Source: Ferruginibacter sp. (GTDB lineage Bacteria > Bacteroidota > Bacteroidia > Chitinophagales > Chitinophagaceae). Taken from it: DNA of 64,000 bases. Below, piece by piece: positions 4,162-31,243 of this stretch (positions are counted from its first letter, which is position 1; each line of letters begins with the position of its first letter). A model generated the notes under the pieces. The model was given only the letters and a program-made list of their open reading frames with translations. It did no database searches and was not told the DNA's origin. A program made the translations under genes and the position numbers. The stretch spans positions 2,087-66,086 of the forward strand of contig JBDSLD010000418.1 in NCBI GenBank assembly GCA_039916545.1, written 5' to 3'.

Positions 4162-4191
4162 GCTATTGATCCATCACCCTAAAATTATCAA

Positions 4192-5193: not shown

Positions 5194-5314
5194 ATAAAGC
5201 CTGTAAAATTTGTCTTCAATAAACTCCAGAGCGCCAGGGTCACTTATGATTTTGCGGCATATTGTAAGCAATCTCTCCTTTTAAGTCTTTGAATTTTAAA
5301 TCAAATAAAAAATT

Positions 5315-7639: not shown

Positions 7640-7730
7640 TTGCGGTACCCATTCACAAATAATAGTAGCATAATCATGATCCTGGCGATTTTTCATAGTA
7701 AATATTTCAATCGAAACAGATAACAACCGA

Positions 7731-9224: not shown

Positions 9225-9268
9225 ATCATTTAAAGTTTATATTACAAAAACCGCTCTGGATATAACAT

Positions 9269-10630: not shown

Positions 10631-10650
10631 TTGCACCTTTCAGAAATCAC

Positions 10651-11784: not shown

Positions 11785-11791
11785 AAATCCA

Positions 11792-12514: not shown

Positions 12515-12532
12515 CACTATTAAATTCTACTT

Positions 12533-13684
12533 ATGAAAATTGGTATAATGACATTTTGGGAGAGCCAGGATAATTATGGACAAATCTTGCAGGCTTTTGC
12601 TTTGAAAAACTATTTAGAGAACAAAGGGCATGATGTATTTATTATAAAATATCACCGCGTAATTCCTGTCAAAACATTTATTGAAAGATTAACTGATTTC
12701 AATTTGAAAGATTTTATCGCCCGAAGAATAACATCAAAAAAGAAGGTGAAAAAATCCGGCATGCCTTCACGTGGATTTGATCAGTTCAAAAAAAAGCACC
12801 TTAATTATAGCAGGCAATCTTATTTTTCTTTAAAAGACCTGGTGCAGGATCCACCTGTGGCTGATGTTTACATCAGTGGTAGCGACCAGGTATGGAACAA
12901 TACTTTTAAAGTTTCGTGTGAAGCATTTCTTTTAGGCTTTGGAGATAATAAAACGATCAGGCTTTCGTACGCCGCAAGTTTCGGTATGAAAAATTTAGAT
13001 AAAAAGACCCGCCTGCTATTTAAAAATAATATAAAGCGCTTTAACGGGATAAGTGTAAGAGAAGAAAGCGGCGTCGATATTTGCAATGAAATGGGCTATA
13101 ACAAGGCCGTATGGGTGCCGGATCCAACACTGTTATTTAATAGATATGATTGGACGAGTTCATTGTCTATTGATGTTAATAGCTCTGCTCAAAATAAAAT
13201 ATTTGTTTATGTAGTGGGTACAGGTTACATAAAAGACAAGCAAAAAATAATTGATTATGCAGGTAGTCTTCCTGGTAAAAATGTAAGTCATGCTACCGCT
13301 AATGGGAGCCAATCAGGTGATAGTTTCCCCAGCATTGAAGAGTGGGTAAAAAGTATTTCGGAAGCCGATTTTGTTATAACTAATTCTTTTCACGGCATGG
13401 TCTTTTGTATCATCTTTCACAAAAAATTTATCGTGCTTCCAAACGGGGGGAAGGCCGCCGACATGAATGAAAGAATTACCAGCTTACTGGAGAAAGTTGG
13501 TTTAAAAGATCATATTATGTATGAGTTTAAAAAGAGCTCAATTGATAGCCTGTTGGCTAAAGAAATCGACTGGCAAAAAATATCAATAATTTTAGAAGAA
13601 TGGAGCAAAGATGCCTCTTTGTTTTTCCGGGAGTTCCTATCCAAAAAAGAATCAGGCGCTATCAGTAATTATAGCCTGCTATAA
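12533..13684 (+). CDS. polysaccharide pyruvyl transferase family protein
   Basis: The N-terminus reads MKIGIMTFWESQDNYGQILQAFAL. Further blocks are ...YISGSDQVWN... and ...ADFVITNSFHGMVFCIIFHKKF..., as in PS_pyruv_trans (CsaB/WcaK-like) enzymes. Confidence 0.8.
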   Translation: MKIGIMTFWESQDNYGQILQAFALKNYLENKGHDVFIIKYHRVIPVKTFIERLTDFNLKDFIARRITSKKKVKKSGMPSRGFDQFKKKHLNYSRQSYFSLKDLVQDPPVADVYISGSDQVWNNTFKVSCEAFLLGFGDNKTIRLSYAASFGMKNLDKKTRLLFKNNIKRFNGISVREESGVDICNEMGYNKAVWVPDPTLLFNRYDWTSSLSIDVNSSAQNKIFVYVVGTGYIKDKQKIIDYAGSLPGKNVSHATANGSQSGDSFPSIEEWVKSISEADFVITNSFHGMVFCIIFHKKFIVLPNGGKAADMNERITSLLEKVGLKDHIMYEFKKSSIDSLLAKEIDWQKISIILEEWSKDASLFFREFLSKKESGAISNYSLL

Positions 13685-13813
13685 TTAACATTGAATAAGA
13701 TCAGTCGCGTTGTTTATGTTTTGATCCGGCCATTTTCTGGCATTGGCTTCAATTTTCTACATCTCTAGTCCGGTGCAAATCCGCCGATTTTATAATCCTT
13801 TAATATCCCCATC

Positions 13814-14917
13814 ATGAAAATAGTTTGTATACACCAGGGTTATGAATTATATGGTTCAGACAGGAGCTTCCTGCAGGTTGTCAAGTATTTAAAGCAATCC
13901 GGGAAATTCAGTAAGATAACCGTGGTCTTGCGTGCACAGGGCGCACTGGTAGCGGAATTAGAAAAACTGGACATCGAAATAGTTTTCGTCAAATTGTCGC
14001 TGATCAACAAAACTTACATCAAGACATTCCGATGGGGAAAGATCATATTTCCATTGTTTTCATTGAGAAAAAAATACAAGTTTTACAATAGTTATGATAT
14101 CATTTATGTAAATACTTCCGTGATCCTGGAAATGTATTTGCTGGCGCCCTTTATTAAAAAGAAAAAGATTTTGCACATCCGGGAAATACCGGCTTTTCCC
14201 CTGAATAAGTTTTTGTCTGTCTTAATTTCCAGGGGAAATTTTAGTGTGATATTCAACTCTGCTTCTACTAAAAAATCATTCAATTCATTTAGGAAAAGTT
14301 ATGTCATCCACAATGCCTTCGAAGGCTTTCTCACGGTTCCTTATATTGAAAAAATATATACGGGCGATGATGAATTGAAGTTGCTGTTGATTGGCAGGAT
14401 CAACAATTGGAAAGGCCAGGATTTTGCAATTGAAGCACTGTCTTACTTAAACCCTGACGAAAAGATAAAATTGAAAATAGTTGGAAGTCCTTTTGAAGGC
14501 AATGAAGTATTACTGGATGAGTTGAAAGAAAAAGCCCGGTCCCTCAATATAATTGACAGGATAGAATTTGTAGATTTTATATCCGATACCCGGCTTGAAT
14601 ATGAACAGGCAGATATAATTATAATCCCATCTGTTAAGCCCGAGCCCTTTGGCCGAACGGCGATCGAGGCGATGAACCTGAAGAAGCCTGTAATAGCGGC
14701 TAATCATGGAGGCCTGCCGGAAATCGTTTCAAACGGATACAGCGGTTATTTATTTACTCCAAACAGTATTCCTGAATTTATTACCAGCATTCGTAAATAT
14801 TACTACAACCGCGATCTGTTGGATAAACACGGCGAAAATTCGTTAAAGATATTCAATGAAAAATTTTCGGTCGACAGGATGTATAGCAATCTTGATAAAG
14901 TATTCCAGGCAACCTGA
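13814..14917 (+). CDS. glycosyltransferase family 4
   Basis: The EX7E region reads PSVKPEPFGRTAIEAMNLKKPVIAANHGGLPEIVSNGYSGYLF. The N-terminal domain is GT-B-like. Confidence 0.85.
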   Translation: MKIVCIHQGYELYGSDRSFLQVVKYLKQSGKFSKITVVLRAQGALVAELEKLDIEIVFVKLSLINKTYIKTFRWGKIIFPLFSLRKKYKFYNSYDIIYVNTSVILEMYLLAPFIKKKKILHIREIPAFPLNKFLSVLISRGNFSVIFNSASTKKSFNSFRKSYVIHNAFEGFLTVPYIEKIYTGDDELKLLLIGRINNWKGQDFAIEALSYLNPDEKIKLKIVGSPFEGNEVLLDELKEKARSLNIIDRIEFVDFISDTRLEYEQADIIIIPSVKPEPFGRTAIEAMNLKKPVIAANHGGLPEIVSNGYSGYLFTPNSIPEFITSIRKYYYNRDLLDKHGENSLKIFNEKFSVDRMYSNLDKVFQAT

Positions 14918-15009
14918 ACTTTATCAACTCGCCGGCTCTTTAAGTTCAACCCATTTTACGCCGTTAAAGACTTTAATCTTTATTTCTGTTTAGTACACTT
15001 CAATTTAAA

Positions 15010-15034
15010 GTCGCTTTGAAACGCGACATTTTTT
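15010..15034 (+). terminator. weak hairpin plus T-tract inside the EPS locus
   Basis: The sequence is GTCGC-tttgaaac-GCGAC followed by ATTTTTT, about 95 nt after the stop of the GT4 gene. The stem is only 5 bp. Confidence 0.3.
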
Positions 15035-15122
15035 CCTTTCAATCCTCGCAATGCCCGGATATCTAAACAGGATATCATAAATCCATCATTATTTATTTTC
15101 TAACCTATTAAACTAACATTCT

Positions 15123-16280
15123 ATGAAAGTAGCTATTCTTGGGACTAGAGGGATCCCAAATTATTATGGAGGGTTCGAGCAGTTTGCGGAATACCTGTCA
15201 TTGGGACTTGTTGAAGCAGGTTTTGATGTGACCGTTTACAATTCGCACACCCATCCGTATCAGCAATCCGAGTGGAACGGAGTTAAGATTGTACATTGTT
15301 ATGATCCCGAAAACAAGCTGGGTACGATCGGGCAGTTTGTGTACGACTTTAACTGTATACTTGACTGCAGGAAAAGAAAATTCGATATTATACTGCAACT
15401 GGGCTATACAAGCAGCTCAGTATGGTATTGGTTATTACCCCGCCGGCATTCGATCATCATTACAAATATGGATGGGATGGAATGGAAAAGAAGCAAGTAT
15501 TCAAACAATGTGAAACAGTTTTTAAAGTATGCGGAAGTTTTGGCGGTGAAGCATAGCCACCATTTGATTTCAGATTCTATAGGTATGCAGGAATATTTAA
15601 AGAACGCCTATGAGGTCAGTTCAACTTACATACCGTATGGGGCGCATGTTTTTAACGATCCGTCACAAGAGGTATTGGAGGAATATAAACTTGCCGCATA
15701 TGATTATAATCTTTTAATCGCAAGACTGGAACCAGAGAACAGCATTGAAGTTATTTTAAATGGCGTTTCTAAATCCACCAACAAAATCCCCTTTTTGGTT
15801 ATAGGAAAAAACGAAACAAAATATGGGGAGTACCTAAAAGAGAAATTTGCATCCTTTGAAAATATCCGGTTCCTGGGAGCCATTTATGATATTAATAAAC
15901 TTAATAACCTGCGTTTTCATTCGAAGATTTATTTTCATGGTCATACGGTGGGCGGTACCAATCCATCGCTACTGGAAGCCATGTCATCGGGCGCTTTGAT
16001 CTGTGCCCACAAAAATATTTTTAATGAAGCGATCTTAGACTCCGATGCGTATTTTTTTACAAATGAGGAAGAGGTCAGAGAGGTTGTTTCAACCGTAGAT
16101 AAAAGTGAGGTTAGCAATGCGAATAAAGTTCGAAGCAATCTCAGTAAAGTAGGCAACAGCTATTTGTGGTCGATCATTATTGATAAATATATTAACCACT
16201 TCAAAATGGTTTGGATGCATCCCAAATTAAATCTTTCTGAAAGTAGTTTAAACCTGGGTAATCAACATTCCGCTCAATAG
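15123..16280 (+). CDS. glycosyltransferase family 1 with DUF1972 N-terminal domain (WchF/RgpA-like)
   Basis: MKVAILGTRGIPNYYGGFEQFAEYLSLGL is the DUF1972 signature. The C-terminal block reads FHGHTVGGTNPSLLEAMSSGALICAH. Confidence 0.8.
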   Translation: MKVAILGTRGIPNYYGGFEQFAEYLSLGLVEAGFDVTVYNSHTHPYQQSEWNGVKIVHCYDPENKLGTIGQFVYDFNCILDCRKRKFDIILQLGYTSSSVWYWLLPRRHSIIITNMDGMEWKRSKYSNNVKQFLKYAEVLAVKHSHHLISDSIGMQEYLKNAYEVSSTYIPYGAHVFNDPSQEVLEEYKLAAYDYNLLIARLEPENSIEVILNGVSKSTNKIPFLVIGKNETKYGEYLKEKFASFENIRFLGAIYDINKLNNLRFHSKIYFHGHTVGGTNPSLLEAMSSGALICAHKNIFNEAILDSDAYFFTNEEEVREVVSTVDKSEVSNANKVRSNLSKVGNSYLWSIIIDKYINHFKMVWMHPKLNLSESSLNLGNQHSAQ

Positions 16281-16674
16281 ACAGGTAAATTCCGTAACCG
16301 GAATAAAATGCTTAGAATAAGTCCGGCACTAATTTATTTGTCCTTTTTCTAACTATTTTTTGGCCTGAAGGCTGACTTGATTTTCTTCTTAACGAAAAAA
16401 AAAATGAAGAGATCAAGCCGATGATAAGAATTAAGGCGCTGTAAAAAAATATTTTTACCCTTGCGAAAATTGAAAATTTTGGGGCAACCATCATTAAGTT
16501 TTTATTTGTATTTAAATTTATTTTAAAGTTTTGTGCGTAAAGAGTCATAAAAAGTGTCAATTGTATTTTAATAAATCTGGTAGTTTTTAAATTTAATTCA
16601 AGCTTTTATTATTGCTGCTGTTATACAATACTGCAATTCGCAGCCCTGTTATTGGCTACTTTTATAGCCAATTT

Positions 16675-18153
16675 TTAATTAATTGTGTTGGTTTGCGTTT
16701 CAATATTATTAAATATTACCGAAGAATCCGATTTAAGCAGGTAAATAACTTTGGAATTTTTCATGATATTTTTTTCGATAAGCAAGCCATCTATGTCAAA
16801 TTTGCAACTTGAATTGTAGAATAACCATCCGTTTGAGCAGGTATTTTGCCTGATTATGGTATTTTTCATATACAACGCATCATCCGCCAAAGATAAATAT
16901 TTCCCAATTAAGTACGAGCCGCTGTCAGAAAGGTTCAAATTATTTTTTTGAATTAATAGAGTTTCCACGGGTCGCTCTTCCACACCTATCAGGCCTACCG
17001 GGTTTCCGTGCTGGTATATTTCATTGCTCAGGATAAAGGCCTTTCCATTTCTAACAAAAAAAGCCCTGCCCTGCGCGTGAATTATGTTTTCAGAGATCAG
17101 GACAACATCGGATACCCCTGCATGGATATCGATCGTGCCGGCATAATCTGTCTGCGCGTTAACAGAACCGAATTTAAAAATCGGCTTTAACGTATCCTCA
17201 GTGAATGTATTTTGTAAAACTTTAATATTCGACACTACAAATTTTCTCGCAGCAGTTGTAAAACCATGTTTACAATTTGAAATAGTATTTTTTGCAATGG
17301 TGATATTATTACAAGCTGCATTTATTCCATACCCCAGCCTGCCTCCTGAATATCCCTGGACATTAAAAAAATCTTTGATGGTGCAATATTTAATCGTTGA
17401 ATTTTCTCCGTCAACCTGTATGGCACAAAATGCATACTCATTACCTTTGAACGAACATTTTTCAACTGTTGAATTTGTACCCCTTATCGCCAGGGCAATA
17501 AATGGATTTTTTGTGTCAGGCTGTTTACTTAGATTAAAAGTGAGGTTGTAAATTCTTGTTGAATCACAGTTTTTAAAGACAGCTACCGTGTTTACATTAA
17601 AACTGTCAAAGAAAGGGGTGGAGATCGTTATATTGTCACCTGCAACATTTTTCACAATAGCATATTGCCCTTTCGAGTAATTGAAAGACGCCAGGTCGGC
17701 CCTGAAAGAATATAACAAATCCGGGCTTAAGAATTGAATCAGGTCGCCGGGTTTTACATTTTTTATAGTTGAAGGCAACGTTATTGTATTGGCGCCTTTA
17801 ACAGCCGTTAACCCTGATACCGCTGTATTTGACAGCCCTTTTCCCACGGATAAAAATATCCCTCCCGCGCGCATGAAACTATCCGTTGGCGTAATCGTGG
17901 CATAGTTCCCTAAAATTGTGCAGCTTACACTTATCACAATTTTTCCTCCGACGAGGTAGTTTTTATTCGCATCAAAAATCAGTGTATCTCCGTCTTTCAG
18001 TATCTGGGTGGCCTTTGTTATCGAAATAATATCATCTGTTAAACCATCTCCTTTAGCGCCAAATGATTTCAATGTTACAACACTGGAATAACAGTTCAAA
18101 CTTATAAACAATAATATAAGTAAACTCTTCAATCTTGTTTTAAAGTTTAGCAT
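16675..18153 (-). CDS. secreted right-handed parallel beta-helix protein (pectate-lyase-3/GH28-like; candidate polysaccharide depolymerase)
   Basis: It has a signal peptide (MLNFKTRLKSLLILLFISLNCYSS). This is followed by LKSFGAKGDGLTDDIISITKA, the N-terminal motif of pectate_lyase_3-type beta-helices. Many N/G/I-rich repeat turns follow (NITIAKNTISNCKHG...). Confidence 0.75.
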   Translation of the reverse strand: MLNFKTRLKSLLILLFISLNCYSSVVTLKSFGAKGDGLTDDIISITKATQILKDGDTLIFDANKNYLVGGKIVISVSCTILGNYATITPTDSFMRAGGIFLSVGKGLSNTAVSGLTAVKGANTITLPSTIKNVKPGDLIQFLSPDLLYSFRADLASFNYSKGQYAIVKNVAGDNITISTPFFDSFNVNTVAVFKNCDSTRIYNLTFNLSKQPDTKNPFIALAIRGTNSTVEKCSFKGNEYAFCAIQVDGENSTIKYCTIKDFFNVQGYSGGRLGYGINAACNNITIAKNTISNCKHGFTTAARKFVVSNIKVLQNTFTEDTLKPIFKFGSVNAQTDYAGTIDIHAGVSDVVLISENIIHAQGRAFFVRNGKAFILSNEIYQHGNPVGLIGVEERPVETLLIQKNNLNLSDSGSYLIGKYLSLADDALYMKNTIIRQNTCSNGWLFYNSSCKFDIDGLLIEKNIMKNSKVIYLLKSDSSVIFNNIETQTNTIN

Positions 18154-18522
18154 AATGATAATAACGACTAAAAAGGCGATTTTATTATAATTTGTCCTAA
18201 GTCCACCTAAGTACTCAATGGCGTTTTACAACAATCATTTTAAAAAAAAATATTAATTTAAAATAATTACCATGTGTTTTTAAAGCCCTTCTAAAGATAA
18301 AAAAATATTAACATTCACCGGGTATGGGTAACAATTGATGATGCCGGGATATATTCGCGGTTGTAAAGGTGTACATCAAAATTGCTTAAAATAATTTGTT
18401 TATTGTAAAATAAGCCGGCTTTTCACGAGCACTTAACAAGGCTGTTGTAAAAGTAAAAGGTAAACGCTCATAACAGGATCAGAATTCGTATTTATGATTT
18501 TCACCCTCTAAACTCTACGAAA

Positions 18523-19908
18523 ATGAATATTTCATACACCAACCTTTTTAGATTTTTCTTTGCATTGGTAGACTTCCTGTCTGTGACAATTATTCACCTG
18601 GCACTGTTGCTGAATTTAAATCGTGTACATGAAAGTAATTCGCGGGAGTACACCTTGCTTTTTCTTGTAAGCAACCTTGCCTGGATGGGCTCTGCTTACT
18701 TCACCGGCCTGTATGTTGATGACCAGGTCAATTTTGACAAGTTTGCCAAACGCACTGCACAGGCGTTTATACTTTTTATAACTTCTTTATTATTGTTTTT
18801 ATTCTTTTCTACTTTTATGTACAGCCGGCTATTTGTGTCCCTTAATATAATTGGGATAGGATTGGCGCTGTTGCTAAGCCGGGTACTCTTTGTGTGGGGC
18901 ATAGCATTTTTTGGAAAGCGGGAGGGATTTAATAAGAAGATCGTGCTATTGGGTTACAACGAATTGTCAAAGCAACTGGTAGATTATTTCTCTAACAACA
19001 ACAAATCTATTTCAGTTGAAGGATATTTTGAAGATTACACCAACATGGATGAATTATCGGTGTTCCCAATATTGGGTAATCGCGATGAATGTGTTTCTTA
19101 CGCGATAAAGCATAAAGTAAAAGAAATATATTCTACCATTTCCCCGGAGAAGCATTCGTACGTGTATGAATTAGCGCAAACGGCAGAAAAGAATATGATA
19201 CGGTTCAAATTTGTACCTGATTTCCGGATGTTTGTCAATCGCAATATCCATGTTGATATTGTAGAAAGTATTCCTATTTTATCCTTTAGATCCGAGCCGC
19301 TTGAGGACATAGTGGCAAGTTCCAAAAAACGTTTATTTGATATTATATTCAGTCTTTTTATAATCATATTTTTATTATCCTGGCTGGTGCCTTTATTGGC
19401 TATACTTGTAAAACTAAATTCAAGAGGGCCAGTATTTTTTGTTCAGTTGAGATCGGGAAAAGATAACCAGGAATTCTGGTGCTTTAAATTCAGGACATTA
19501 AAAGTGAATAAGGATTCTGATCTGAAACAGGTTACTAAAGACGATGACCGCTTTACAAAATTTGGAAAATTTCTCAGAAAGACAAGTCTTGACGAATTAC
19601 CGCAATTTTTTAATGTGCTGTTAGGCAATATGTCAGTGGTAGGGCCGCGACCGCACATGCTAAAACATACGGAGGATTTTTCAAGAATATTTGACGAGTA
19701 TATGATACGGCATTTTGTAAAACCCGGTGTTACAGGATGGGCGCAGGTTAGCGGGTTTCGTGGTGAGATAAAGGAAGAGGAGCAATTGCGCAAAAGGATC
19801 GAGTATGATATCTGGTATCTTGAAAACTGGAGTATATGGTTAGATATCCGCATCATCGTTTTAACCTTCTATGTAAGTTTTTTTAAAGGAGATGAAAATG
19901 CGTACTGA
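18523..19908 (+). CDS. undecaprenyl-phosphate hexose-1-phosphate transferase (WbaP/WcaJ-type initiating enzyme)
   Basis: N-terminal TM helices are followed by KRLFDIIFSLFIIIFLLSWLVPLLAILVKLNSRGPVFFVQLRSGKDNQEFWCFKFRTL. Then come DELPQFFNVLLGNMSVVGPRPH and ...KPGVTGWAQV... . Confidence 0.9.
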   Translation: MNISYTNLFRFFFALVDFLSVTIIHLALLLNLNRVHESNSREYTLLFLVSNLAWMGSAYFTGLYVDDQVNFDKFAKRTAQAFILFITSLLLFLFFSTFMYSRLFVSLNIIGIGLALLLSRVLFVWGIAFFGKREGFNKKIVLLGYNELSKQLVDYFSNNNKSISVEGYFEDYTNMDELSVFPILGNRDECVSYAIKHKVKEIYSTISPEKHSYVYELAQTAEKNMIRFKFVPDFRMFVNRNIHVDIVESIPILSFRSEPLEDIVASSKKRLFDIIFSLFIIIFLLSWLVPLLAILVKLNSRGPVFFVQLRSGKDNQEFWCFKFRTLKVNKDSDLKQVTKDDDRFTKFGKFLRKTSLDELPQFFNVLLGNMSVVGPRPHMLKHTEDFSRIFDEYMIRHFVKPGVTGWAQVSGFRGEIKEEEQLRKRIEYDIWYLENWSIWLDIRIIVLTFYVSFFKGDENAY

Positions 19909-19988: not shown

Positions 19989-21530
19989 TTACAAAGGAAT
20001 ATTCCCATGCTTTCTTTTTGGTTGTACGGCCACCTTATTTTCAAGCATGGCGAAAGCTTTGATCAATTTTTTTCTTGTCTCTTTCGGCTCAATCACTTCA
20101 TCAATAAAACCTCTCTCTGCAGCCAGGTAGGGAGTAGCAAATTTCTCCGCATATTCCATTTCTTTCTCCGCCAATTTTTTTACCGGGTCAGCAGCTTCCG
20201 AAATTTCTTTTTTGAAAATAATTTCGCTGGCGCCACGTGCACCCATGACGGCAATTTCCGCACTGGGCCAGGCAAAGTTCATATCCGCTCCAATATGTTT
20301 TGAATTCATTACATCATAGGCGCCACCATAGGCTTTTCTTATAATGACTGTTACACGCGGTACAGTGGCTTCGCTCAGGGCATACAGCAGTTTTGCTCCG
20401 TTGGTAATAATGCCGTGCCATTCCTGGTCGGTGCCAGGTAAAAATCCAGGCACGTCTACCAGTACGAGCAAAGGGATATTAAAACAATCGCAAAAACGTG
20501 TAAAGCGTGCGGCCTTTCTCGAACTTTTTATATCCAGCACGCCAGCCAGTCTGATCGGTTGATTGGCGACAATACCAATACTTCTGCCGGCGAGCCTTGC
20601 AAACCCAACAACGATATTTTCCGCATAGTCTTTATGGATCTCGAAGAAACTCGCTTCATCACAAATGCCCGTGATCACCGCCCGCATATCGTAGGGCTGG
20701 TTAGCACTTGCGGGGATAATGTCCTGTAGCTCTTCCCGGGTTTCGTCTCCTAAAGTAAAAGGAAATACCGGGGTAGTATCTTCACAATTTTGGGGCAGGT
20801 AACTTAGTAATTGTTTTACCTGCGCAATGCATTCCACATCGTTAGCGGATGTTAAATGTGTAACACCCGATTTGGTAGAATGGGTTGAGGCGCCTCCTAA
20901 TTCTTCTGAGCTGACTTCTTCATTGGTGACTGTTTTTACAACATTGGGTCCTGTTACAAACATATAACTCGTGTGCTCCACCATCAGTGTAAAATCGGTA
21001 ATGGCGGGCGAGTAAACAGCGCCACCCGCGCATGGCCCCATAATAGCGGATATCTGTGGGATAACCCCGGATGATCGTACGTTCCTGTAAAAAATATCTG
21101 CATAGCCACCAAGCGACCTGACCCCTTCCTGTATCCGCGCACCGCCAGAATCATTCAGCCCGATCATTGGGGCTCCCGTCTTCATGGCGAGGTCCATTAC
21201 CTTACAAATTTTTTCCGCATGTGTTTCTGATAGCGCACCGCCGAAAACTGTAAAATCCTGTGCAAATACATACACCAGCCGACCATTGATCGTGCCATAA
21301 CCGGTAACTACGCCATCTCCATAAAATTGTTGCTCGCCCATTCCAAAATCGATGGTACGGTGTATGACCAATGCGCCTATTTCCTCAAAAGAGCCCGGGT
21401 CCATTAATAAGCTGATACGCTCCCGTGCTGTTAGTTTGCCTTTTTTATGCTGCGTGTCGATCCTGTCCTTCCCACCACCAGATTTCCCTTCCGCTAATTT
21501 TTGATTCAGTAAATCTATTTTTGATTTCAT
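19989..21530 (-). CDS. acyl-CoA carboxylase carboxyltransferase (beta) subunit, propionyl-CoA/methylmalonyl-CoA type
   Basis: Carboxyl_trans blocks are present: [47 protein letters not shown] and [11 protein letters not shown]. Confidence 0.95.
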
Positions 21531-21541
21531 GTTGCTTTTTT

Positions 21542-23014
21542 TTACAACTGTCTTTTTTTCCAGTTGGATGTTACAGGGTTAAGGGCCTTCAATTTCTTTT
21601 GTGCATTCAACCAATATTTCAGGGCGATGATAGCAGCCAGTTCCGCATTGCTTTTTTGTTTACCTGTTAGTTTTGCCGGGGTATAATGGTCTTTCACAAA
21701 ATGGGTATCAAATTTACCGGATAGAAATGCTTCATGTTCAAAAACGAATTTTCCAAATGGCAATGTGGTGGATACACCTTCAATGATATAATCTTTTATA
21801 GCGGTCTTCATTTTTTGTATCGCATCCATCCGGTCTTTCCCATGAGTTACCAATTTGGCGATCATGGGATCATAGTAAATAGGAATGGACATACCCTGTT
21901 CATAACCATCATCTACACGAACACCATCACCACCTGGTTTTGTATAGGTGGTAAGCGTCCCGATAGAAGGTAGAAAGTCATTCAGTGGATCTTCTGCATA
22001 AACCCTGAGCTCAACGGAGTGTCCGTCAATTTGCAGCTCATCCTGCGTAAAACTCAAAACTTCCCCTCTTGCGATCCTGATCTGTTCTTCTACCAGGTCC
22101 TTCCCGGTTATCATTTCAGTAACGGGGTGCTCTACCTGCAACCTGGTATTCATTTCAAGAAAATAGAAATTCAGCTGGTCATCAATTAAAAATTCGACCG
22201 TGCCGGTACTGGTATAATCACAGGATTTTGCTACCATTACCGCAGCTGCACCCATTGTTTTTCGAAGTTCAGGCGTTAGTACTGAGGAGGGAGATTCTTC
22301 CACTACCTTCTGATGCCTGCGCTGGATACTGCATTCCCGTTCGAACAAGTGCACGACGTTTCCGTGCTTATCTGCCAGCACCTGAATTTCGATGTGCCTG
22401 GGGGCGGTCACATATTTTTCGATAAATACAGCGCCGTCGCCAAAAGATGATTTAGCTTCACTGGTGGCTCTTTGCATTTGCTCTTCAAGATCCTCTTCCT
22501 TTTCCACTACACGCATACCTTTTCCACCGCCACCGGCTGAAGCCTTGATCAATATCGGGTAGCCTGTTTTTTTAGCGATCGCCTTGGCCAGGCTGATATC
22601 TTCGATCGCCTGGTCAGTGCCGGGTACCATTGGGATATTGTATTTCTTTACGCACTCTTTGGCCGCCAGCTTGGAGCCCATAATGCGCATGGCTGCGGGC
22701 CCCGGACCAATAAAATTAATGCCTGCTTCTTCCACCAATTGAGCAAAATCGGCATTCTCGCTGAGAAAGCCATAGCCCGGATGAATGCCATCTACACCCA
22801 ATTCTTTTGCGAAGGCAATTATTTTTTCACCATCCAGGTATGATTGGGCTGAAGGGCCGGCACCCAGGCAAACAGCCTCATCCGCAAACAATACATGTGG
22901 TGAATTTCTATCGGGTTCGGAAAAGACTGCCACGGACCTGATCCCCATTTTACGGATCGTGCGCATGATTCTTAAGGCAATCTCACCGCGGTTGGCGACT
23001 AATATTTTTTGCAT
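21542..23014 (-). CDS. accC: biotin carboxylase (ATP-grasp) subunit
   Basis: The N-terminus reads [19 protein letters not shown]. Other blocks are [19 protein letters not shown] and [17 protein letters not shown] ~40-aa C-terminal extension goes beyond canonical AccC. Confidence 0.95.
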
Positions 23015-23122
23015 ATTTGTTGTTAAAAGTTATCTCACTAATTAATACAGGCAGCATGGATTTTTAAGGCAATTAAAGACAAACTAAGCTATCGGACTCA
23101 TGACGATGTGCAGGTGATGAGT

Positions 23123-23623
23123 TTATTCAAGTTCTACCAATACCTGGCCCCTGTCAACGGCCTGTCCTTTTGAAACCAGTATTTTTTTTATTGTTGCGCC
23201 GGTTGGGATCATGATGCTGTTTTCCATTTTCATGGCTTCCAGTATTAGAATTTTATCTCCTGCATTTACCTGCTGGCCTTCTGACACGGCTATTTCCAAT
23301 ACCAATCCGGGCATCGGCGCTTTTATATTAGTGAGCTGTTTATTTACCTTTACACCAAAGCCCATTATCTCAAGCATCTGGTCCAGTTCATCCTTAATTT
23401 CAATGGAAAATGTATCGCCGTCGATCGCGATCTTAAACTTTTTATTGTCCGTATCGGCTTCCACCAGCACCGCATTAACGGAATGGTGTTCTTTTATGCA
23501 ATTGAATTCAGTGTCGGATTTTTGTATGAGGTCGGTATTTTGTAAATCAGTTTTATCAAAATAAAAAACAAAATCATTTGCTTTTATTTTGTAGGCCTTA
23601 TTCATGTCAATCATAAGTAGCAT
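23123..23623 (-). CDS. biotin carboxyl carrier protein (biotin/lipoyl attachment domain)
   Basis: The C-terminal domain reads IKAPMPGLVLEIAVSEGQQVNAGDKILILEAMKMENSI and contains the biotinyl-Lys AMKM motif. The start may be one of the internal Met codons. Confidence 0.9.
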   Translation of the reverse strand: MLLMIDMNKAYKIKANDFVFYFDKTDLQNTDLIQKSDTEFNCIKEHHSVNAVLVEADTDNKKFKIAIDGDTFSIEIKDELDQMLEIMGFGVKVNKQLTNIKAPMPGLVLEIAVSEGQQVNAGDKILILEAMKMENSIMIPTGATIKKILVSKGQAVDRGQVLVELE

Positions 23624-23871: not shown

Positions 23872-25005
23872 TCAATCAAACCCATTCTTCCATTTTTGTG
23901 CGATTGCGATGGCTGTTTCCAACATGTATGGTTCCCATTTTTCAATTTCCCAATCCGTATTGGATAAGATAGATGTTCGGAGCAATTGTTGCGCGTGCTC
24001 GTAGCCGTTAGCGCTTTCTAAAATATTTGATAAGATTGATTGTTGGGCCTGTAGTAGCCTGTCTGCCATTGGATGGCCTGTTACCGGGTTCGTTGCGGGA
24101 TGAAAGCGATGTTGTGACAGCATGCTTTGCTGGCCGTCGTAATCCTTGACGATCGAACCCATTTTTTTGAAATCCTGTTGAAATAAATTTCTGCTATTGC
24201 TGGTATTAAGTCCATTGCTCAATTGTTCCAGCACTACATATTTTAAGTGTGGGCACATAGGAATGGTTTGCCTCAATAAATGAAACACTTCTTCCGGAAC
24301 AGAATCATCATGCGTATCCCTTCTTATTCTTTTGCCGGGAATAATTTGGGAATCTTCCCAACTACCGCCTGAAACATGAATTTCCCGCACACGGTGGAGC
24401 GGGTAAAGACGGATAAGTTCGTTAAAATCAATGTTGAAATTGTGTACCTGGCAGTATATATTGTGCAGGTCCAGAATGATAAAGCCATTCACCGGCGCTA
24501 CCAGCTGGTCCAAAAATTCACCATGCTTTTTTACTTCGTCCAATGAATAGGAAAATGCAAGATTCTCCAACCCGACAGGGCATTGACAGGCCTGGTAGAT
24601 CCTTTGTAACCTGTCGCGCCCGATTGATAGCGTTGTAAAAGTAAAGGGAATAGGAAGCGGCGCGCCGTAGTGAAAATTTTCACCCGTCATAAATCCGAAA
24701 TGCTCCGAAATTTGGTCAAAGCGAAATTCAGCGGATACTTTTTTAAGATGTCCCAGCCAATCCTGCTGGTCCTTCGACCAGCTTCCTGAAAACAAAGAAA
24801 AATATACACCGTGGCCGATCAACCTGTTTTCATTGCCAAAAGCGGTTAGCAATTCAACGAACCAGCCGGGAATGTTCCTGACTTTGAAAAGGGTGTCGAA
24901 GGACCATTCAATCGCTTCTACTTGCTCGCTTTCAAATAACGGGATGGCGGCCGACAATATATTTTCATCGAGGTTGCAGGATATGGAGGAAAATATTTTT
25001 CCCAT
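23872..25005 (-). CDS. chrH: DUF692/UPF0276 multinuclear non-haem iron oxidase (MNIO; ChrH/MbnB/TglH/BufB family) with ~110-aa C-terminal extension
   Basis: TIM-barrel landmarks of DUF692 appear in order: IEWSFDTLF, HGVYFSLFSG, ISEHFGF, VGLENLAF, IILDLHNIYCQVHNF, VREIHVSGG, RRDTHDDSVPEEVF and YVVLEQL. These end near residue 265 of 377. The symbol is given only in the sense of ChrH-like. Confidence 0.85.
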   Translation of the reverse strand: MGKIFSSISCNLDENILSAAIPLFESEQVEAIEWSFDTLFKVRNIPGWFVELLTAFGNENRLIGHGVYFSLFSGSWSKDQQDWLGHLKKVSAEFRFDQISEHFGFMTGENFHYGAPLPIPFTFTTLSIGRDRLQRIYQACQCPVGLENLAFSYSLDEVKKHGEFLDQLVAPVNGFIILDLHNIYCQVHNFNIDFNELIRLYPLHRVREIHVSGGSWEDSQIIPGKRIRRDTHDDSVPEEVFHLLRQTIPMCPHLKYVVLEQLSNGLNTSNSRNLFQQDFKKMGSIVKDYDGQQSMLSQHRFHPATNPVTGHPMADRLLQAQQSILSNILESANGYEHAQQLLRTSILSNTDWEIEKWEPYMLETAIAIAQKWKNGFD

Positions 25006-25038
25006 GAATAATTATTAAATGATCCGCAAAGGAATGCT

Positions 25039-25203
25039 TTATCCCATTCCGCATGCCGGGCAATTATCCGGGTAGCTGGTTGTTTTGGATTTCTCTGTCG
25101 GTACTTTTTTTCCTGCATCAACGCCCGGTTTTTCACATGAGCTGATCAGTCCTGCAGTAACCGCAACCAACATTGCCTGGATAAGTGTTTTTGAAACTTT
25201 CAT
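25039..25203 (-). CDS. chrA: 54-aa RiPP precursor candidate with lipoprotein-type signal and C-terminal CPACGMG motif (ChrA-like)
   Basis: I translated this by hand from the minus strand. It runs from ATG at 25203 to TAA at 25041-25039 and gives MKVSKTLIQAMLVAVTAGLISSCEKPGVDAGKKVPTEKSKTTSYPDNCPACGMG. The stop lies 33 nt before the DUF692 start codon on the same strand. It is too short (<60 aa) for the supplied ORF track. Confidence 0.7.
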   Translation of the reverse strand: MKVSKTLIQAMLVAVTAGLISSCEKPGVDAGKKVPTEKSKTTSYPDNCPACGMG

Positions 25204-25421
25204 CGTATATATTTATAAGATTATGAAACTGTTTACATCCATGACAAGGATCTTTTTAAAAGGGTTGCAACGCTAAATTAAATAAAAAGGGTATGCTGGT
25301 AGTCTAATTTTTCTTTTCAGCGCAAAGCATTATAGTTAAAGCGTTTTTACGAATATTCAACTGGTGGAATAATTTAAAAAGGCCCATTTCTGTACGGACT
25401 GTTGTAAGTTTGCGTTTTCCG

Positions 25422-27874: not shown

Positions 27875-28078
27875 AATGTTTTTTTTGAACGGCTAAATTA
27901 ACATCTATTAGCTGGAAATGAAATTAATTATTCAACAATGAAATCACAGCGGTATCATATGTTAAAATACCGGAAAAACAAAATAGAAATATTAAAACAA
28001 AATGTTAAATTTAATTTCTCTCCATTTCCGCGGATACACCCTCATTTTTCTGCTAATCTAAATCTAAAAACAATTATC

Positions 28079-31000
28079 ATGAAAAAACTTCTCCTCTTTT
28101 CCTTATTGATCAACGTTACTTTTTGCACTTACGCCCAGGTTTCCGACAATGCAACCGGCATTGCCAATAAACTTCTTCAAAAAAATATTGCGGCAGCAGG
28201 TTTAAAGCCAGCCGACCTTGGAAATTCAATTGTTACGGGCACTTACCTGGTACCCGGATCAAATATCAGGATGGTGTACCTGCAACAGACCTACCAGGAT
28301 ATTCCTGTATATAACCAGGTGCAGGTATTGGCATTTAACGGTGATAAACTGGTGTCTAATGCAGGTGGCCGGTTACCCGCAGTTGAACAGCTGAATAAAA
28401 ATGCCGCCAGGAGCGCCACTATTAGTTCGGCAAATGCCGTACAGGCATCCCTGGCCTTGTTAAAGATCAAGCCATCACAGGATATTGTAGCATTGAGGTC
28501 GCCCGGTAACGGCAAAAAATTCGAATTTGGCAAACAAAATATTTCCATAGAAAATATAACCGCTGAATTGATATGGTTACCTGTGGATGATGGCAAAGAA
28601 CTGAAGCTGGTTTGGCAGGTATTCGTTGCCCCGCACAACGACCAGGATTATTGGCTCGTAAGGATCGATGCAACCAATAATTCATTTATCAATAAACAAA
28701 GCCTAACTATAAAATGTAACTGGGATACAGAGGATCATTCCGAAAAAGGTCATCTAAATAACAACAACGGTTTAAGTACCGGCCCGGGCAGTAAGCCACT
28801 GGTATCGCCGGGGAATAATAAATCAGGGGCCGGGGCACAAGTGGTAAATACCGCAACATACCGCGTCATTAAATATCCGGCCGAAAGTCCGCAGCACTCG
28901 GGCGGAGCAAGTGTATTGGTTACGGCCCCATGGAACATGTCGCCAGGCAATGCAACCACATTGGGATGGCACAATGACGGTACCACCTCTTACAGCAATA
29001 CGAGAGGTAATAATGTATATGCATATGAAGATAGGAATGCTGATAATCTGACCGGTGTATCCCCGGTTTCTACTACCGCTCAGCCAAGCCTGACTTTCAA
29101 CTTTGTGCCTGATTTTACACTCGCGCCAACCGTTACATCGCCTACGCCCAATCAGCAGTTTAACACGACCAATTTATTTTACTGGAACAACCTGATGCAC
29201 GACCTGTCATATATTTATGGGTTTAATGAAGCGTCCAGGAACTTTCAAAATAATAACCAAAGCAGGGGAGGAGCAGGAGCCGATTATGTGCTGGCAGAAT
29301 CACAGGACGGAAGTGGTACCAATAACGCTAATTTTTCTACCCCTGCAGATGGAGGAAGGGGCAGGATGCAAATGTACCTTTGGACAGCCCCTACGCCAGA
29401 CCGCGATGGAGATGTAGACAACGGCATCATCGCCCATGAGTACACGCATGGAATTAGCAACAGGCTTACCGGGAATGGCAGTACCTGTCTTACAAACGCC
29501 GAGCAAATGGGCGAGGGCTGGAGTGATTTTTTTGGTTTGATGATCACGCAGGACTGGTCGACTACCGCACTAAATGACGGCTTCAGCAAGCCCCGTGGAA
29601 TTGGTACGTATGCATTGAACCAGCCCATAACGGGCTTGGGTATCCGCCAATACAGGTACACAACGGATATGTCCGTCAATCCCCTGACTTATGGGAACCT
29701 TGCTTCTGTCGTGGCGCCGCATGGAGTGGGTACGATCTGGTGTACCGCCTTATGGGATATGACCTGGGAGATCATACAACAAAACGGAACGATCAATCCC
29801 AATATTTTCAATATCGGTGTGGGTGGCGGAAATGCCATTGCCCTGAAACTGGTATTGGAAGGATTACGTTTGCAACCCTGCAGTCCCGGTTTTATTGATG
29901 GACGGAATGCTATCCTGAAAGCAGATACATTGTTTTTTGGCGCTCAATACAGTTGCGCCATAATAAAAGCTTTTGCCAGGAGGGGAATGGGCCTGGGCGC
30001 CTCACAAGGTTCGTCTAATTCCAGAACAGACCAGACACTTAGCTTTGTGGATTGCTCATCAGCCACCTGTAATACACCAACGGGTTTAACTGCAACGAAC
30101 ATCACTACTACCTCCGCAGCCGTTAACTGGTCCGCTGTTTCAGGGGCAACCAACTATACGGTGGAGTATAAATTAAATACTGCTTCTGCCTGGATTACCG
30201 CTGCTGCGGCCACAACTGCCACCACTGCAAGTATTAGTGGTCTCACTGCCGCGTCACTGTATGACTGGCGGGTGCGTACCAACTGTTCTTCGGGTAGCGG
30301 TGCGTTTACGGCAGCCCAGTTTACTACTTCTGCCACAGCTAACTGCTCCGCGCCAACCGGTCTTACAACTTCCGCCATTACTACCAGTAGTGCAACGGTC
30401 AACTGGGCGACTGTACCTGGCGCGCTTAATTATACCGTGGAATATAAATTGAACACTGCCGCTACCTGGACCGTAGCTGCAACAGCAATTACTGCCACTT
30501 CCTTCAATATAACTGGTCTTACTGCAGGCAGCGCCTATAATTGCAGGGTGCTGGCGACCTGCCCGGCCGGTAACAGTGCTTATACGCAGGTGAATTTCAC
30601 GACAACTTCCCTGGGATGCGCCAGTTCATATGATATCAGCTCAAATGGCACAACAGGCGGCGCCGCTCAAATACCACTTAATACCGATGTTACAGGCCTC
30701 ATTAGTCCGACCGGTGATAATGACTATTACAAGTTTGTAATAACTACCAGCGGAACTGCTACTATCACTTTGTCGACTCTGCCTGCAGATTACGATATCC
30801 GGTTGTACAGGAGCAATGGTACGAGCCAGCTGGCTATCTCTCAAAATGGAAATACCACGAGCGAAACGATCAGTGGGAATTTTGGTGCCGGCACTTATTA
30901 TTTGAAGGTATATGGTTATAACGGGGCAAATAACGCGAATACCTGCTATACACTGAAAGTGGCTACCGGTACGGCTTCTTTTGGAGAGGAGTTATTGCCT

Positions 31001-31243
31001 GGTGTTATTACCAGAACACGGGTCTTCCCTAATCCGGCAAACAAATCAGTTACGGTAAGCATGAGCGATTTTAAAAGTACCGCTGATCTTTTATTGTATG
31101 ACATTTATGGAAAACTCTTATTAAAACAAAGAGCCCGCAAGTCTGATACGCAGGTTGATATTTCAAACCTACCTTCCGGTACTTATATAATCAGGGTAAA
31201 GAACAATGGAAAAGAAACCAACCTGAAAATTGTTAAACAGTAG
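28079..31243 (+). CDS. secreted M36 (fungalysin) metalloprotease with 2x FN3, PPC domain and T9SS type-A C-terminal sorting domain
   Basis: The track ORF starts at 27938; the ATG at 28079 gives the signal peptide MKKLLLFSLLINVTFCTYAQ. The zinc site reads IIAHEYTHGISNRLTG...EGWSDFF. Two FN3 repeats follow (...NYTVEYKLNTA...). A PPC-like GDNDYYKF domain is present. The CTD reads VFPNPANKSVTVS...GTYIIRVKNNGKETNLKIVKQ. Confidence 0.9.
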   Translation: MKKLLLFSLLINVTFCTYAQVSDNATGIANKLLQKNIAAAGLKPADLGNSIVTGTYLVPGSNIRMVYLQQTYQDIPVYNQVQVLAFNGDKLVSNAGGRLPAVEQLNKNAARSATISSANAVQASLALLKIKPSQDIVALRSPGNGKKFEFGKQNISIENITAELIWLPVDDGKELKLVWQVFVAPHNDQDYWLVRIDATNNSFINKQSLTIKCNWDTEDHSEKGHLNNNNGLSTGPGSKPLVSPGNNKSGAGAQVVNTATYRVIKYPAESPQHSGGASVLVTAPWNMSPGNATTLGWHNDGTTSYSNTRGNNVYAYEDRNADNLTGVSPVSTTAQPSLTFNFVPDFTLAPTVTSPTPNQQFNTTNLFYWNNLMHDLSYIYGFNEASRNFQNNNQSRGGAGADYVLAESQDGSGTNNANFSTPADGGRGRMQMYLWTAPTPDRDGDVDNGIIAHEYTHGISNRLTGNGSTCLTNAEQMGEGWSDFFGLMITQDWSTTALNDGFSKPRGIGTYALNQPITGLGIRQYRYTTDMSVNPLTYGNLASVVAPHGVGTIWCTALWDMTWEIIQQNGTINPNIFNIGVGGGNAIALKLVLEGLRLQPCSPGFIDGRNAILKADTLFFGAQYSCAIIKAFARRGMGLGASQGSSNSRTDQTLSFVDCSSATCNTPTGLTATNITTTSAAVNWSAVSGATNYTVEYKLNTASAWITAAAATTATTASISGLTAASLYDWRVRTNCSSGSGAFTAAQFTTSATANCSAPTGLTTSAITTSSATVNWATVPGALNYTVEYKLNTAATWTVAATAITATSFNITGLTAGSAYNCRVLATCPAGNSAYTQVNFTTTSLGCASSYDISSNGTTGGAAQIPLNTDVTGLISPTGDNDYYKFVITTSGTATITLSTLPADYDIRLYRSNGTSQLAISQNGNTTSETISGNFGAGTYYLKVYGYNGANNANTCYTLKVATGTASFGEELLPGVITRTRVFPNPANKSVTVSMSDFKSTADLLLYDIYGKLLLKQRARKSDTQVDISNLPSGTYIIRVKNNGKETNLKIVKQ

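Follow-up and report, generated by a model that had tools for sequence, protein, structure and literature searches.

A genome of Ferruginibacter (Chitinophagaceae) very probably carries a free-standing two-gene cassette of the DybA/DybH type, that is, a "DAG-RiPP" cassette in which an MNIO enzyme would oxidise the C-terminus of a short precursor peptide that is then lipidated at Cys23. This assignment is drawn from the match of the precursor to the NCBIfam model NF050125, the placement of Cys23 in a lipobox, the closer relationship of the enzyme to DybH and ChsH, and the absence of chrI, chrE and chrP genes nearby. The locus was noticed in an earlier sequence-only reading of the window (the whole stretch of 64,000 nucleotides analysed here); what that reading observed is confirmed, and what it made of the observation is partly supported. 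The cassette adds an unremarkable new member to a known family, since cassettes of this two-gene type were described in 2025–26, and the family mechanism has been published (bioRxiv, November 2025; PNAS, March 2026; PMC13056109). The word "Ferruginibacter" has 0 occurrences in the supplement text of that study, the Mendeley datasets apart. Curated NCBIfam models already cover the chryseobasin-related family, and as one more example from the Chitinophagaceae the locus adds little to RiPP discovery.

The precursor gene lies on the minus strand at 25039..25203 (54 codons plus TAA), with its ATG at 25203 and its stop codon at 25041-25039, and ends 33 nt before the MNIO gene, exactly as the sequence-only reading had it. 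Its translation, MKVSKTLIQAMLVAVTAGLISSCEKPGVDAGKKVPTEKSKTTSYPDNCPACGMG, ends in ...DNCPACGMG immediately before the TAA, and the core motif CPACGMG (residues 48-54) is encoded at 25042..25062 (minus strand). LysC digestion of the 54-aa peptide is expected to release the fragment TTSYPDNCPACGMG. In a six-frame translation of the 64-kb window, the pattern C-x2-C-G-x-G followed by a stop codon is unique to this ORF. The peptide had been described as hidden from standard gene callers, which is not the case: it already has a GenBank entry, MEO5893986.1 ("hypothetical protein ABIQ31_27255", Ferruginibacter sp. MAG), beside MEO5893985.1 ("DUF692 family multinuclear iron-containing protein"). The GenBank annotation nevertheless lags behind the curated models, since the peptide is still a "hypothetical protein" although NF050125 ("chryseobasin-related MNIO class RiPP peptide") would now name it. 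This model, of 56 positions, matches residues 1-54 of the precursor with 58.6 bits (cutoff 40), and it is also matched by the characterised precursors DybA (61.1 bits) and ChsA (89.7 bits).

Conservation of the short ORF upstream of the enzyme in relatives, which the sequence-only reading named as a point to check, is borne out at 76 of 80 related genomic loci, where a homologous precursor is found just upstream of the MNIO gene on the same strand. The short ORFs at these 76 loci share both the N-terminus, MK[LIV][SP]K..LL, and the C-terminus, and the co-conservation of precursor and enzyme spans many Bacteroidota families with otherwise variable neighbours. Across 87 family precursors, the C-terminal heptapeptide is almost invariant and the linker is divergent; CPACGMG itself ends 62 of them, and the others end in CPxCGxG-like variants. 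The codons of this motif differ mostly synonymously among six close relatives (TGC/TGT, CCG/CCT/CCA, GGA/GGC/GGT), with an Ala/Gly exchange at position 3 as the exception. Thus, given a motif-plus-stop found once in the window, the position of the precursor upstream of the enzyme in relatives and the mostly synonymous codon changes, the pair and its motif are real and beyond chance. The same evidence bears on the proposal that the short ORF encodes just a small lipoprotein with a CxxC tail for metal binding or a disulfide, left unmodified by any enzyme, and that the neighbouring MNIO uses another substrate. CxxC is common as a metal and redox motif, which is reflected in a weak, sub-threshold Pfam match to a rubredoxin-like domain (E 0.039). 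Such a lipoprotein is very unlikely, however, to travel with the enzyme across so many families while other neighbours vary, or to keep its tail almost unchanged while the linker diverges freely, and in homologous pairs the enzyme has been shown to modify the peptide both in E. coli and in vitro (PMC13056109).

The 33-nt spacer between the two genes (25006..25038, minus strand), defined by the ORF coordinates, contains no terminator-like site in a terminator scan, so precursor and MNIO genes presumably form one operon. Around the cassette, the window encodes an MFS transporter, a DUF2911/TPR protein and acyl-CoA carboxylase subunits. A conserved third gene, whether for a partner, transporter, protease or methyltransferase, was ruled out: when the window neighbours were searched by tblastn in the 80 loci, the MFS gene turned up in the nearest relative only, all-against-all clustering of flanking ORFs gave no cluster other than within-genus synteny, and among 127 immediate neighbours scanned with Pfam, every gene family occurred in 8 or fewer. 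The interpretation of the two adjacent genes as a functional unit stands. ChrI is both absent and not needed. What was described as a "minimal format" is the normal format outside Chryseobacterium, and BGCs for DAG-RiPPs usually comprise a precursor and an MNIO gene only (PMC13056109).

At its N-terminus, the precursor carries a predicted lipoprotein (signal-peptidase-II) signal, encoded together with the Cys23 codon at 25135..25203 (minus strand). Residues 1-22 comprise an n-region, MKVSK, with lysines at positions 2 and 5, and an h-region, TLIQAMLVAVTAGLI, and lead into the lipobox L-I-S-S-C, whose cysteine, Cys23 (codon 25137-25135, minus strand), is the predicted site of diacylglyceryl attachment. 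The sequence-only reading had concentrated on Cys48 and Cys51 and overlooked this residue. The call combines a pattern rule with family conservation: a PS00013-style rule is satisfied at Cys23, as it is in DybA (Cys23) and ChsA (Cys24) and not in ChrA, and an early cysteine (position 18-27) is found in 87/87 family precursors. The localisation is less predictable, as the residue at +2 behind the lipobox Cys is Glu and an acidic export stretch is missing. Genes for Lgt, LspA and the N-acyltransferase were not found among the scanned window ORFs of at least 150 aa and are expected elsewhere in the genome.

The MNIO gene occupies 23872..25005 on the minus strand (377 aa plus stop). PF05114 (MbnB_TglH_ChrH), the family suggested by the sequence-only reading, matches residues 51-260 of the product at E 9.5e-33 (114 bits, gathering cutoff 25), and all seven motifs listed by that reading are present (HGVYFSL, ISEHFGF, GLENL, ILDLHNIY, EIHVSGG, RRDTHDD and VVLEQL). 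Full-length identities of ~59% to DybH, ~57% to ChsH and ~42% to ChrH are approximate lower bounds because the reference sequences were read from the supplement by OCR. The best NCBIfam model is MNIO_ChrH (NF050165), which gives 391 bits, below its equivalog cutoff of 600; for the same reason as the identities, the control scores of 348 bits for DybH and 640 bits for ChrH are approximate. Within the MNIO/DUF692 family, the enzyme is assigned by its sequence to the ChrH branch, and identities and model scores place it with the "other Bacteroidota" clade (DybH/ChsH) and not with the Chryseobacterium clade.

An AF2 model of the enzyme (pLDDT 87.5, pTM 0.90) consists of a barrel and a C-terminal helical bundle, and its top Foldseek matches are TglH and MbnB (E 9e-15 to 1e-9). 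The catalytic TIM-barrel domain (residues ~1-265; 24211..25005, minus strand) was delimited from invariant positions, motif alignment and AF2 secondary structure, and the bundle (residues ~316-374; 23884..24060, minus strand), with helices at 316-331, 335-343 and 359-374, is tied to it through a linker of lower confidence. Alignments to DybH, ChsH and ChrH extend to residues 372-376 and so take in the bundle; such a helical domain at the C-terminus characterises the ChrH subfamily, and its necessity was shown with MelHc (PMC13056109). Nine residues (H65, H102, E147, D179, N182, H210, D230, H232 and E260) are invariant in alignments of 11 and 46 sequences and are putative iron ligands, an assignment that leans on the published structures of MbnB and TglH; the ENxA, DLHN, xHxxGG, HD and LE motifs align with those of TglH (8hci).

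The pairing of an MNIO with a precursor that contains cysteines and bears a signal peptide is also what would be expected of a copper-chelating RiPP resembling bufferins or oxazolins, with Cys turned into a thiooxazole or an oxazolone-thioamide, and some bufferins and oxazolins are likewise predicted lipoproteins. This identity is highly improbable here: the enzyme scores only 95 bits against the BufB model (cutoff 310) and 82 bits against the HvfB model (cutoff 360), neither a DUF2063 nor an MbnC-like partner gene occurs near the cassette, and the precursor contains neither an EGKCG nor a DUF2282 signature. Furthermore, no new chromophore is seen by UV-vis in the product DybAH (PMC13056109).

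Closer at hand is the identification made in the sequence-only reading, a chryseobasin-type cassette. In its strict form, this would be a true ChrA/ChrH system with a stripped-down gene cluster, in which a soluble peptide is secreted through signal peptidase I and carries an S-methylated macrocycle and hydantoin (+10 Da). The reading was correct that precursors of the ChrA type end in a conserved CPACGMG (PMC10214503; PMC13056109), and the tail here is identical; its enzyme belongs to the ChrH branch, aligns with ChrH over the full length and has MNIO_ChrH as its best model. ChrI was later found to be dispensable, and ArlAH was partly methylated, as a mixture of products (PMC13056109). A true chryseobasin cassette is nonetheless quite unlikely. 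The precursor matches NF050125 and not the ChrA model NF050124, against which it gives no match at E <= 0.01 (ChrA control, 107.4 bits); it has a lipobox Cys where ChrA has none; the enzyme falls short of the equivalog cutoff that ChrH exceeds and is nearer DybH and ChsH; and no gene for ChrI (DUF1772), ChrE (ribulose-phosphate 3-epimerase) or ChrP (M42 peptidase) was found among ORFs of at least 150 aa within ~10 kb on each side. The members of the clade that were tested, DybAH, ChsAH and HymAH, are moreover unmethylated (PMC13056109).

For the DybA/DybH-type cassette, the following mechanism is proposed. A promoter of the ECF-sigma type, lying 38 nt upstream of the precursor, would probably drive the joint transcription of the two genes. 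In the cytoplasm, the MNIO, a predicted tri-iron TIM barrel whose C-terminal helical bundle would stand in for a separate partner protein, would recognise the C-terminal CPACGMG of the precursor. By analogy with DybAH, ChsAH and HymAH, a four-electron oxidation would join Cys48 and Cys51 in a macrocycle with an imidazolidinedione (hydantoin) and a thiohemiaminal, leaving a product with a net change of -4 Da, one free thiol and most likely no S-methylation. The N-terminal signal would then route the modified peptide into the Sec and lipoprotein pathway, where, following lipo-DybAH, Lgt would attach diacylglycerol to Cys23, signal peptidase II would cleave after Ser22, and the new N-terminus would be acylated. 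The mature form would be a 32-residue lipid-anchored peptide, CEKPGVDAGKKVPTEKSKTTSYPDN-[modified CPACGMG]. The expected product is therefore an unmethylated -4 Da macrocycle and hydantoin with subsequent lipidation at Cys23, a chemistry extrapolated from homologues that are ~57-59% identical. The sequence-only reading had predicted one methylation in addition to the four-electron oxidation, which is unlikely, since all three members characterised from Bacteroidota other than Chryseobacterium (DybAH, ChsAH and HymAH) yielded unmethylated -4 Da products (PMC13056109).

The promoter candidate is found at 25242..25269 on the minus strand. It consists of a -35-like TGCAAC(C) at 25269-25263, a spacer of 17 nt and a -10-like TGTCA at 25246-25242, and its end is 38 nt 5' of the precursor ATG. 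In an alignment of six Chitinophagaceae loci, both boxes are invariant and the spacer is variable. A motif of this kind, with the family form CAAC[C/G]-N15-17-[C/T]GTC, occurs in 37/77 regions upstream of precursors, versus 4/323 control regions, and is seen at loci of Chitinophagaceae, Saprospiraceae, Dyadobacter, Pontibacter and Hymenobacter. From this invariance and enrichment, we infer that TGCAACC-N17-TGTCA may work as a promoter. The canonical Bacteroidota -33/-7 promoter (TTTG...TAnnTTTG) shows no enrichment upstream of precursors (0-3/61 regions), and sigma-70 and terminator scans around the cassette remained at chance level; Rfam families gave no match there at E <= 1, and inverted repeats were unremarkable. 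No ECF sigma gene to pair with the motif was found among the Pfam-scanned window ORFs of at least 150 aa, and neither the papers on ECF21/Dma nor the one on ECF reclassification spells out a motif by which it could be assigned to a known ECF group. It is conceivable, if still tentative, that cassettes for chryseobasin-related lipopeptides are transcribed in general from a conserved ECF-sigma-type promoter instead of the usual housekeeping promoter of Bacteroidota. The words "sigma" and "promoter" are absent from the full text of PMC13056109, and the conserved promoter is possibly a new point on the family. If true, it would place the cassettes in the envelope-stress or lipoprotein regulon of some ECF sigma factor, would be the first experimental handle on their biological function, and would suggest how to look for the signal that induces them and for the sigma factor responsible.

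Among known systems, TglH (8hci/8hi7) and MbnB (7tcr/7fc0) share the TIM-barrel fold with the enzyme (TM-score 0.70-0.80, target-normalised) and its metal-site motifs align with theirs, but their sequence identity to it is only 14-22%, they need the partners TglI and MbnC, they have no C-terminal bundle, and their chemistry is beta-carbon excision or formation of an oxazolone-thioamide. In the MelA1/MelH/MelHc system of a Melainabacteria MAG, an MNIO of the ChrH family also converts CPACGMG to a -4 Da product (PMC13056109). The substrate there, however, is a 34-kDa secreted TPR protein, and MelHc supplies the C-terminal helical domain as a polypeptide of its own; in Ferruginibacter, enzyme and domain form one chain. 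The ChrA/ChrH system of Chryseobacterium (ACS Cent Sci 2023; PMC10214503) has the same substrate motif, an MNIO of the subfamily with a C-terminal extension, and the same core macrocycle and hydantoin chemistry as expected here. ChrA differs in its length (69 aa), its signal for signal peptidase I, the lack of a lipobox Cys and its NCBIfam model, and the chryseobasin product is S-methylated (+10 Da); the chr operon also encodes ChrI (DUF1772), ChrE and ChrP (PMC10214503), none of which is encoded near the cassette studied here.

ChsA/ChsH comes from the same bacterial family (Chitinophaga sancti; PMC13056109) and is built in the same way, its precursor having the lipobox Cys at residue 24 and a CPACGMG tail. 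ChsA is 59 aa long with another linker, and ChsAH is known as a -4 Da, unmethylated product; for ChsA, oxidation alone was shown and not lipidation. The system that gives its name to the type assigned here is DybA/DybH, the DAG-RiPP cassette of Dyadobacter crusticola with the product lipo-DybAH (PNAS 2026; PMC13056109), in which DybH alone is sufficient for the -4 Da unmethylated product and lipo-DybAH was isolated in triacylated form (PMC13056109). The hosts differ, Dyadobacter belonging to the Spirosomataceae, and the linkers are unrelated (CEKPGVDAGKK... here versus CADMDIKPEK... in DybA, with Glu here and Ala in DybA at position +2). Each cassette consists of two genes, the precursor gene immediately preceding that of the enzyme, and neither has a partner protein. 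Like DybA, the Ferruginibacter precursor is a peptide of ~50 aa that starts with MK[IV]SK, has its lipobox Cys at residue 23, ends in CPACGMG and matches NF050125, and like DybH, its enzyme, at ~59% identity and 377 aa, ends in a C-terminal helical bundle.

The cassette consists of two genes on the minus strand of the window. An ORF that runs from an ATG at 25203 to a TAA at 25041–25039 encodes a 54-aa precursor peptide (MKVSKTLIQAMLVAVTAGLISSCEKPGVDAGKKVPTEKSKTTSYPDNCPACGMG), and after a 33-nt gap it is followed by an ORF at 23872–25005 that encodes a 377-aa enzyme of the MNIO (DUF692) family. All of the enzyme motifs listed in the sequence-only reading are present, and its DUF692 assignment is borne out by a match of the 377-aa product to Pfam PF05114 (MbnB_TglH_ChrH) over residues 51–260 (E 9.5e-33, 114 bits; gathering score 25). 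Across six frames of the whole window, the precursor is the sole instance of C-x2-C-G-x-G followed by a stop. Because ORFs, gap, motifs, Pfam match and window-unique tail all check out, the sequence facts are confirmed. The peptide is not hidden from gene callers, as that reading had held: GenBank already contains both proteins, on a 67,803-nt contig of a Ferruginibacter sp. MAG (Chitinophagaceae, phylum Bacteroidota), the peptide as MEO5893986.1 ('hypothetical protein ABIQ31_27255') and the MNIO as MEO5893985.1 ('DUF692 family multinuclear iron-containing protein'). The name of MEO5893986.1 lags, since the peptide now scores above the cutoff of the NCBIfam equivalog NF050125 (release 20, June 2026).

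The fold of the enzyme was modeled with AlphaFold2 from 46 homologues (mean pLDDT 87.5, pTM 0.90). The model contains a TIM barrel to about residue 265, a long helix (269–292), a lower-confidence linker, and three C-terminal helices (316–331, 335–343 and 359–374). Its best PDB matches in Foldseek are TglH (8hci, 8hi7; E 9e-15) and MbnB (7fc0, 7tcr). Nine residues (H65, H102, E147, D179, N182, H210, D230, H232 and E260) are invariant across homologues and sit in motifs that align with TglH; judging from the published MbnB and TglH structures, they are the probable iron ligands.

A protein search with the MNIO returned 2,410 relatives at E ≤ 1e-10, the best 120 of which are 62–100% identical. 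Scanning one genome per species yielded 492 loci, and 80 of them were retrieved. The short ORF proved to be conserved: 76 of the 80 loci carry a complete one on the same strand just upstream of the MNIO, beginning MK[LIV][SP]K..LL and ending CPxCGxG. In the other four, one precursor is cut by a contig end, two loci have no upstream sequence, and one (L013) is the only locus with intact flanks but no adjacent CPxCGxG precursor; there, the gene immediately preceding the MNIO encodes a LytTR-type response regulator instead (2077–4134). The precursors number 87 in total, with CPACGMG at the C-terminus of 62 and CPGCGMG of 10. All 87 have a Cys at position 18–27 after a small residue (77/87 pass a strict lipobox rule), and the linker between lipobox and C-terminal motif varies freely. 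In six close relatives, codon differences within the heptapeptide are synonymous, except for Ala/Gly at position 3.

Beyond the pair, no conservation was seen. Flanking-ORF clustering recovered within-genus synteny only, the MFS gene of the window recurs in the nearest Ferruginibacter relative only, and among 127 immediate neighbours every Pfam family is confined to 8 or fewer. For Bacteroidota outside Chryseobacterium, the BGC has been described as usually a precursor and an MNIO alone, without a partner protein (PMC13056109). The conservation found across the loci independently reproduces that statement of a two-gene functional unit.

Some precursors and loci depart from the arrangement of the cassette. 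An extra linker motif, C-x3-C-x-[ILV]-[DNM]-H, is conserved in 11/87 precursors and absent from the window peptide; it is a possible second site for recognition of a metal or the enzyme. It occurs in L016, L025, L029, L032, L033, L038, L043, L056, L078 (two copies) and L080, titled Saprospiraceae, Lewinellaceae, Flavilitoribacter, Chitinophagales or unclassified Bacteroidota/Bacteroidia. Ten loci have two tandem, divergent precursor genes before a single MNIO (L022, L023, L031, L054, L064, L066, L072, L075, L078 and L079; Fluviicola, Saprospiraceae and unclassified Bacteroidota).

In the window, the cassette is neighboured by a divergent MFS transporter, a DUF2911/TPR protein, a T9SS M36 protease and three acyl-CoA carboxylase subunits. 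The carboxylase genes (19989–23623, minus strand; biotin carboxyl carrier protein, biotin carboxylase and carboxyltransferase) lie directly downstream of the MNIO on the same strand after a 248-nt gap, and this adjacency looks fortuitous because none of the 80 related loci has them. A large exopolysaccharide/capsule cluster at 3331–19908 (Poly_export, a Wzz/GNVR tyrosine-kinase-like protein, flippase, a Wzy_C protein, several glycosyltransferases, and pyruvyl, hexapeptide and sugar transferases) appears unrelated to the cassette. No evidence was found to link the cassette to the secreted M36 fungalysin-type metallopeptidase with fn3 domains and a T9SS sorting tail (27938–31243, plus strand), a PKD/CHU_C T9SS cargo protein (36643–38754, plus strand) or a TssN homologue of the Bacteroidota-type T6SS (55549–56379, minus strand).

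Classical ECF-sigma promoters combine an AAC-containing −35 element, a 16–17 nt spacer and a (C/T)GTC −10 element. An element with this architecture, TGCAACC-N17-TGTCA (25269–25242, minus strand), ends 38 nt before the precursor ATG and is a promoter candidate. In an upstream alignment of six Chitinophagaceae loci, the TGCAAC and TGTCA boxes are invariant and the 17-nt spacer is variable. Individual clades have versions of their own: CCCAACC-N16-CGTCT in Saprospiraceae, GGTTACAACC-N16-C[AG]TC in Dyadobacter, and TGCAACC-N16-GGTCA in Pontibacter and Hymenobacter. An unbiased comparison of every 4-mer pair (spacer 15–19 nt) across 61 dereplicated upstream regions, with dinucleotide shuffles as background, puts (CAAC, GTCA) first (17 regions) and (CAAC, GTCT) second (16), with 0.3–0.5 expected; the top enriched 6-mers are TGCAAC (21 regions versus 2.6 expected) and CCAACC (15 versus 2.5). 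With regular expressions written after the data had been seen, CAAC-N15-19-GTC[AT] was found in 37/77 precursor upstream regions, compared with 4/323 upstream of other genes in the same loci. The motif is missing from some Chitinophaga loci and from Fluviicola. The precursor upstream regions show no enrichment of TAnnTTTG, the −7 box usual in Bacteroidota, and none of the scanned window ORFs (at least 150 aa) was recognised as an ECF sigma gene. Neither 'sigma' nor 'promoter' appears as a word in the 2026 paper (PMC13056109), and this ECF-type promoter candidate is the sole lead beyond the literature.

A second match, GCAACC-N15-GTCA (45181–45205, minus strand), lies 20 nt upstream of ORF 44322–45161 (minus strand), whose 279-aa product carries a lipoprotein signal (MSKNFLPLLTLTCLIFLLTGC...) and matches nothing in Pfam or NCBIfam. 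This match may be coincidence, because motif matches in the window are at chance level (3 found versus 1.65 expected). In a Spirosoma MAG (L019), a canonical CAACCC-N15-CGTCT at about 2950–3076 precedes a small lipoprotein gene (MLESIKQFSGFLIVNILVFSAC...; 3077–3499, plus strand) about 1.3 kb downstream of the MNIO. That two of the few other occurrences precede lipoprotein genes is anecdotal.

Besides ChrA and ChrH (DUF692), the Chryseobacterium chr BGC encodes ChrE, ChrP and the DUF1772 membrane protein ChrI, and ChrA does end in a conserved CPACGMG, as stated in the sequence-only reading (logo of 115 BGCs; PMC10214503). An arrangement like that of the cassette was described in a follow-up from the same laboratory (bioRxiv, November 2025, PMC12636315; PNAS, March 2026, PMC13056109). 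Shorter precursors occur in Bacteroidota besides Chryseobacterium, mostly Dyadobacter, Chitinophaga and Hymenobacter, and their extra invariant Cys is the lipobox of a signal-peptidase-II signal (PMC13056109). All ChrH-family enzymes have a C-terminal helical bundle of ~7.8 kDa, and MelHc is needed where the bundle is a separate protein (PMC13056109). On its own, DybH of Dyadobacter crusticola turns DybA into a −4 Da product that contains a macrocycle, a hydantoin and the free thiol of a thiohemiaminal and has no S-methyl group; ChsAH (Chitinophaga sancti) and HymAH gave the same outcome (PMC13056109). When DybA keeps its native N-terminus, the lipoprotein pathway of E. coli triacylates it and it is found in outer-membrane vesicles; the authors named these products DAG-RiPPs (PMC13056109).

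Gene order, motif, lipobox, enzyme family and fold, and co-conservation are observed for the cassette itself, and the characterised homologues suggest how it would work. The cytosolic MNIO would need neither a leader nor a partner protein to recognise the C-terminal heptapeptide, its own C-terminal bundle probably taking the partner role (compare MelHc). A four-electron oxidation of Cys48-Pro-Ala-Cys51-Gly-Met-Gly would then yield the macrocycle, hydantoin and thiohemiaminal; the methylation predicted earlier is absent from the chemistry expected by homology with DybAH, ChsAH and HymAH. After oxidation, the peptide would be exported, receive diacylglycerol on Cys23, be cleaved after Ser22 and be N-acylated, giving a predicted mature product of 32 residues. 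The window peptide has Glu at +2 after the lipobox Cys (the CEKP start is conserved in its Chitinophagaceae clade) and no acidic stretch.

The sequence-only reading assigned the enzyme subfamily correctly and overlooked the predicted lipid anchor of the peptide. By a PROSITE PS00013-style rule, the peptide has a lipobox (L-I-S-S-C) at Cys23, and its n-region includes Lys2 and Lys5; DybA passes at Cys23 and ChsA at Cys24, whereas ChrA fails. The window peptide matches NF050125 ('chryseobasin-related MNIO class RiPP peptide') over its full length with 58.6 bits (cutoff 40), as do the controls DybA (61.1 bits) and ChsA (89.7 bits); ChrA matches another model, NF050124 ('chryseobasin precursor ChrA'; 107 bits). 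Against NF050165 (MNIO_ChrH; equivalog cutoff 600), the window enzyme scores 391 bits, below the cutoff, DybH 348 and ChrH 640. In nearly end-to-end BLASTP alignments, the enzyme is 59% identical to DybH, 57% to ChsH and 42% to ChrH, values that are lower bounds because the reference sequences come from an OCR copy of the preprint supplement. Among the scanned ORFs of at least 150 aa within ~10 kb of the cassette, no gene for a DUF1772, ribulose-phosphate epimerase or M42 peptidase protein was found. The hidden or minimal chryseobasin cluster first proposed is rejected. The pair is a typical member of the published DybA/DybH lipoprotein-RiPP type, for which curated models exist.
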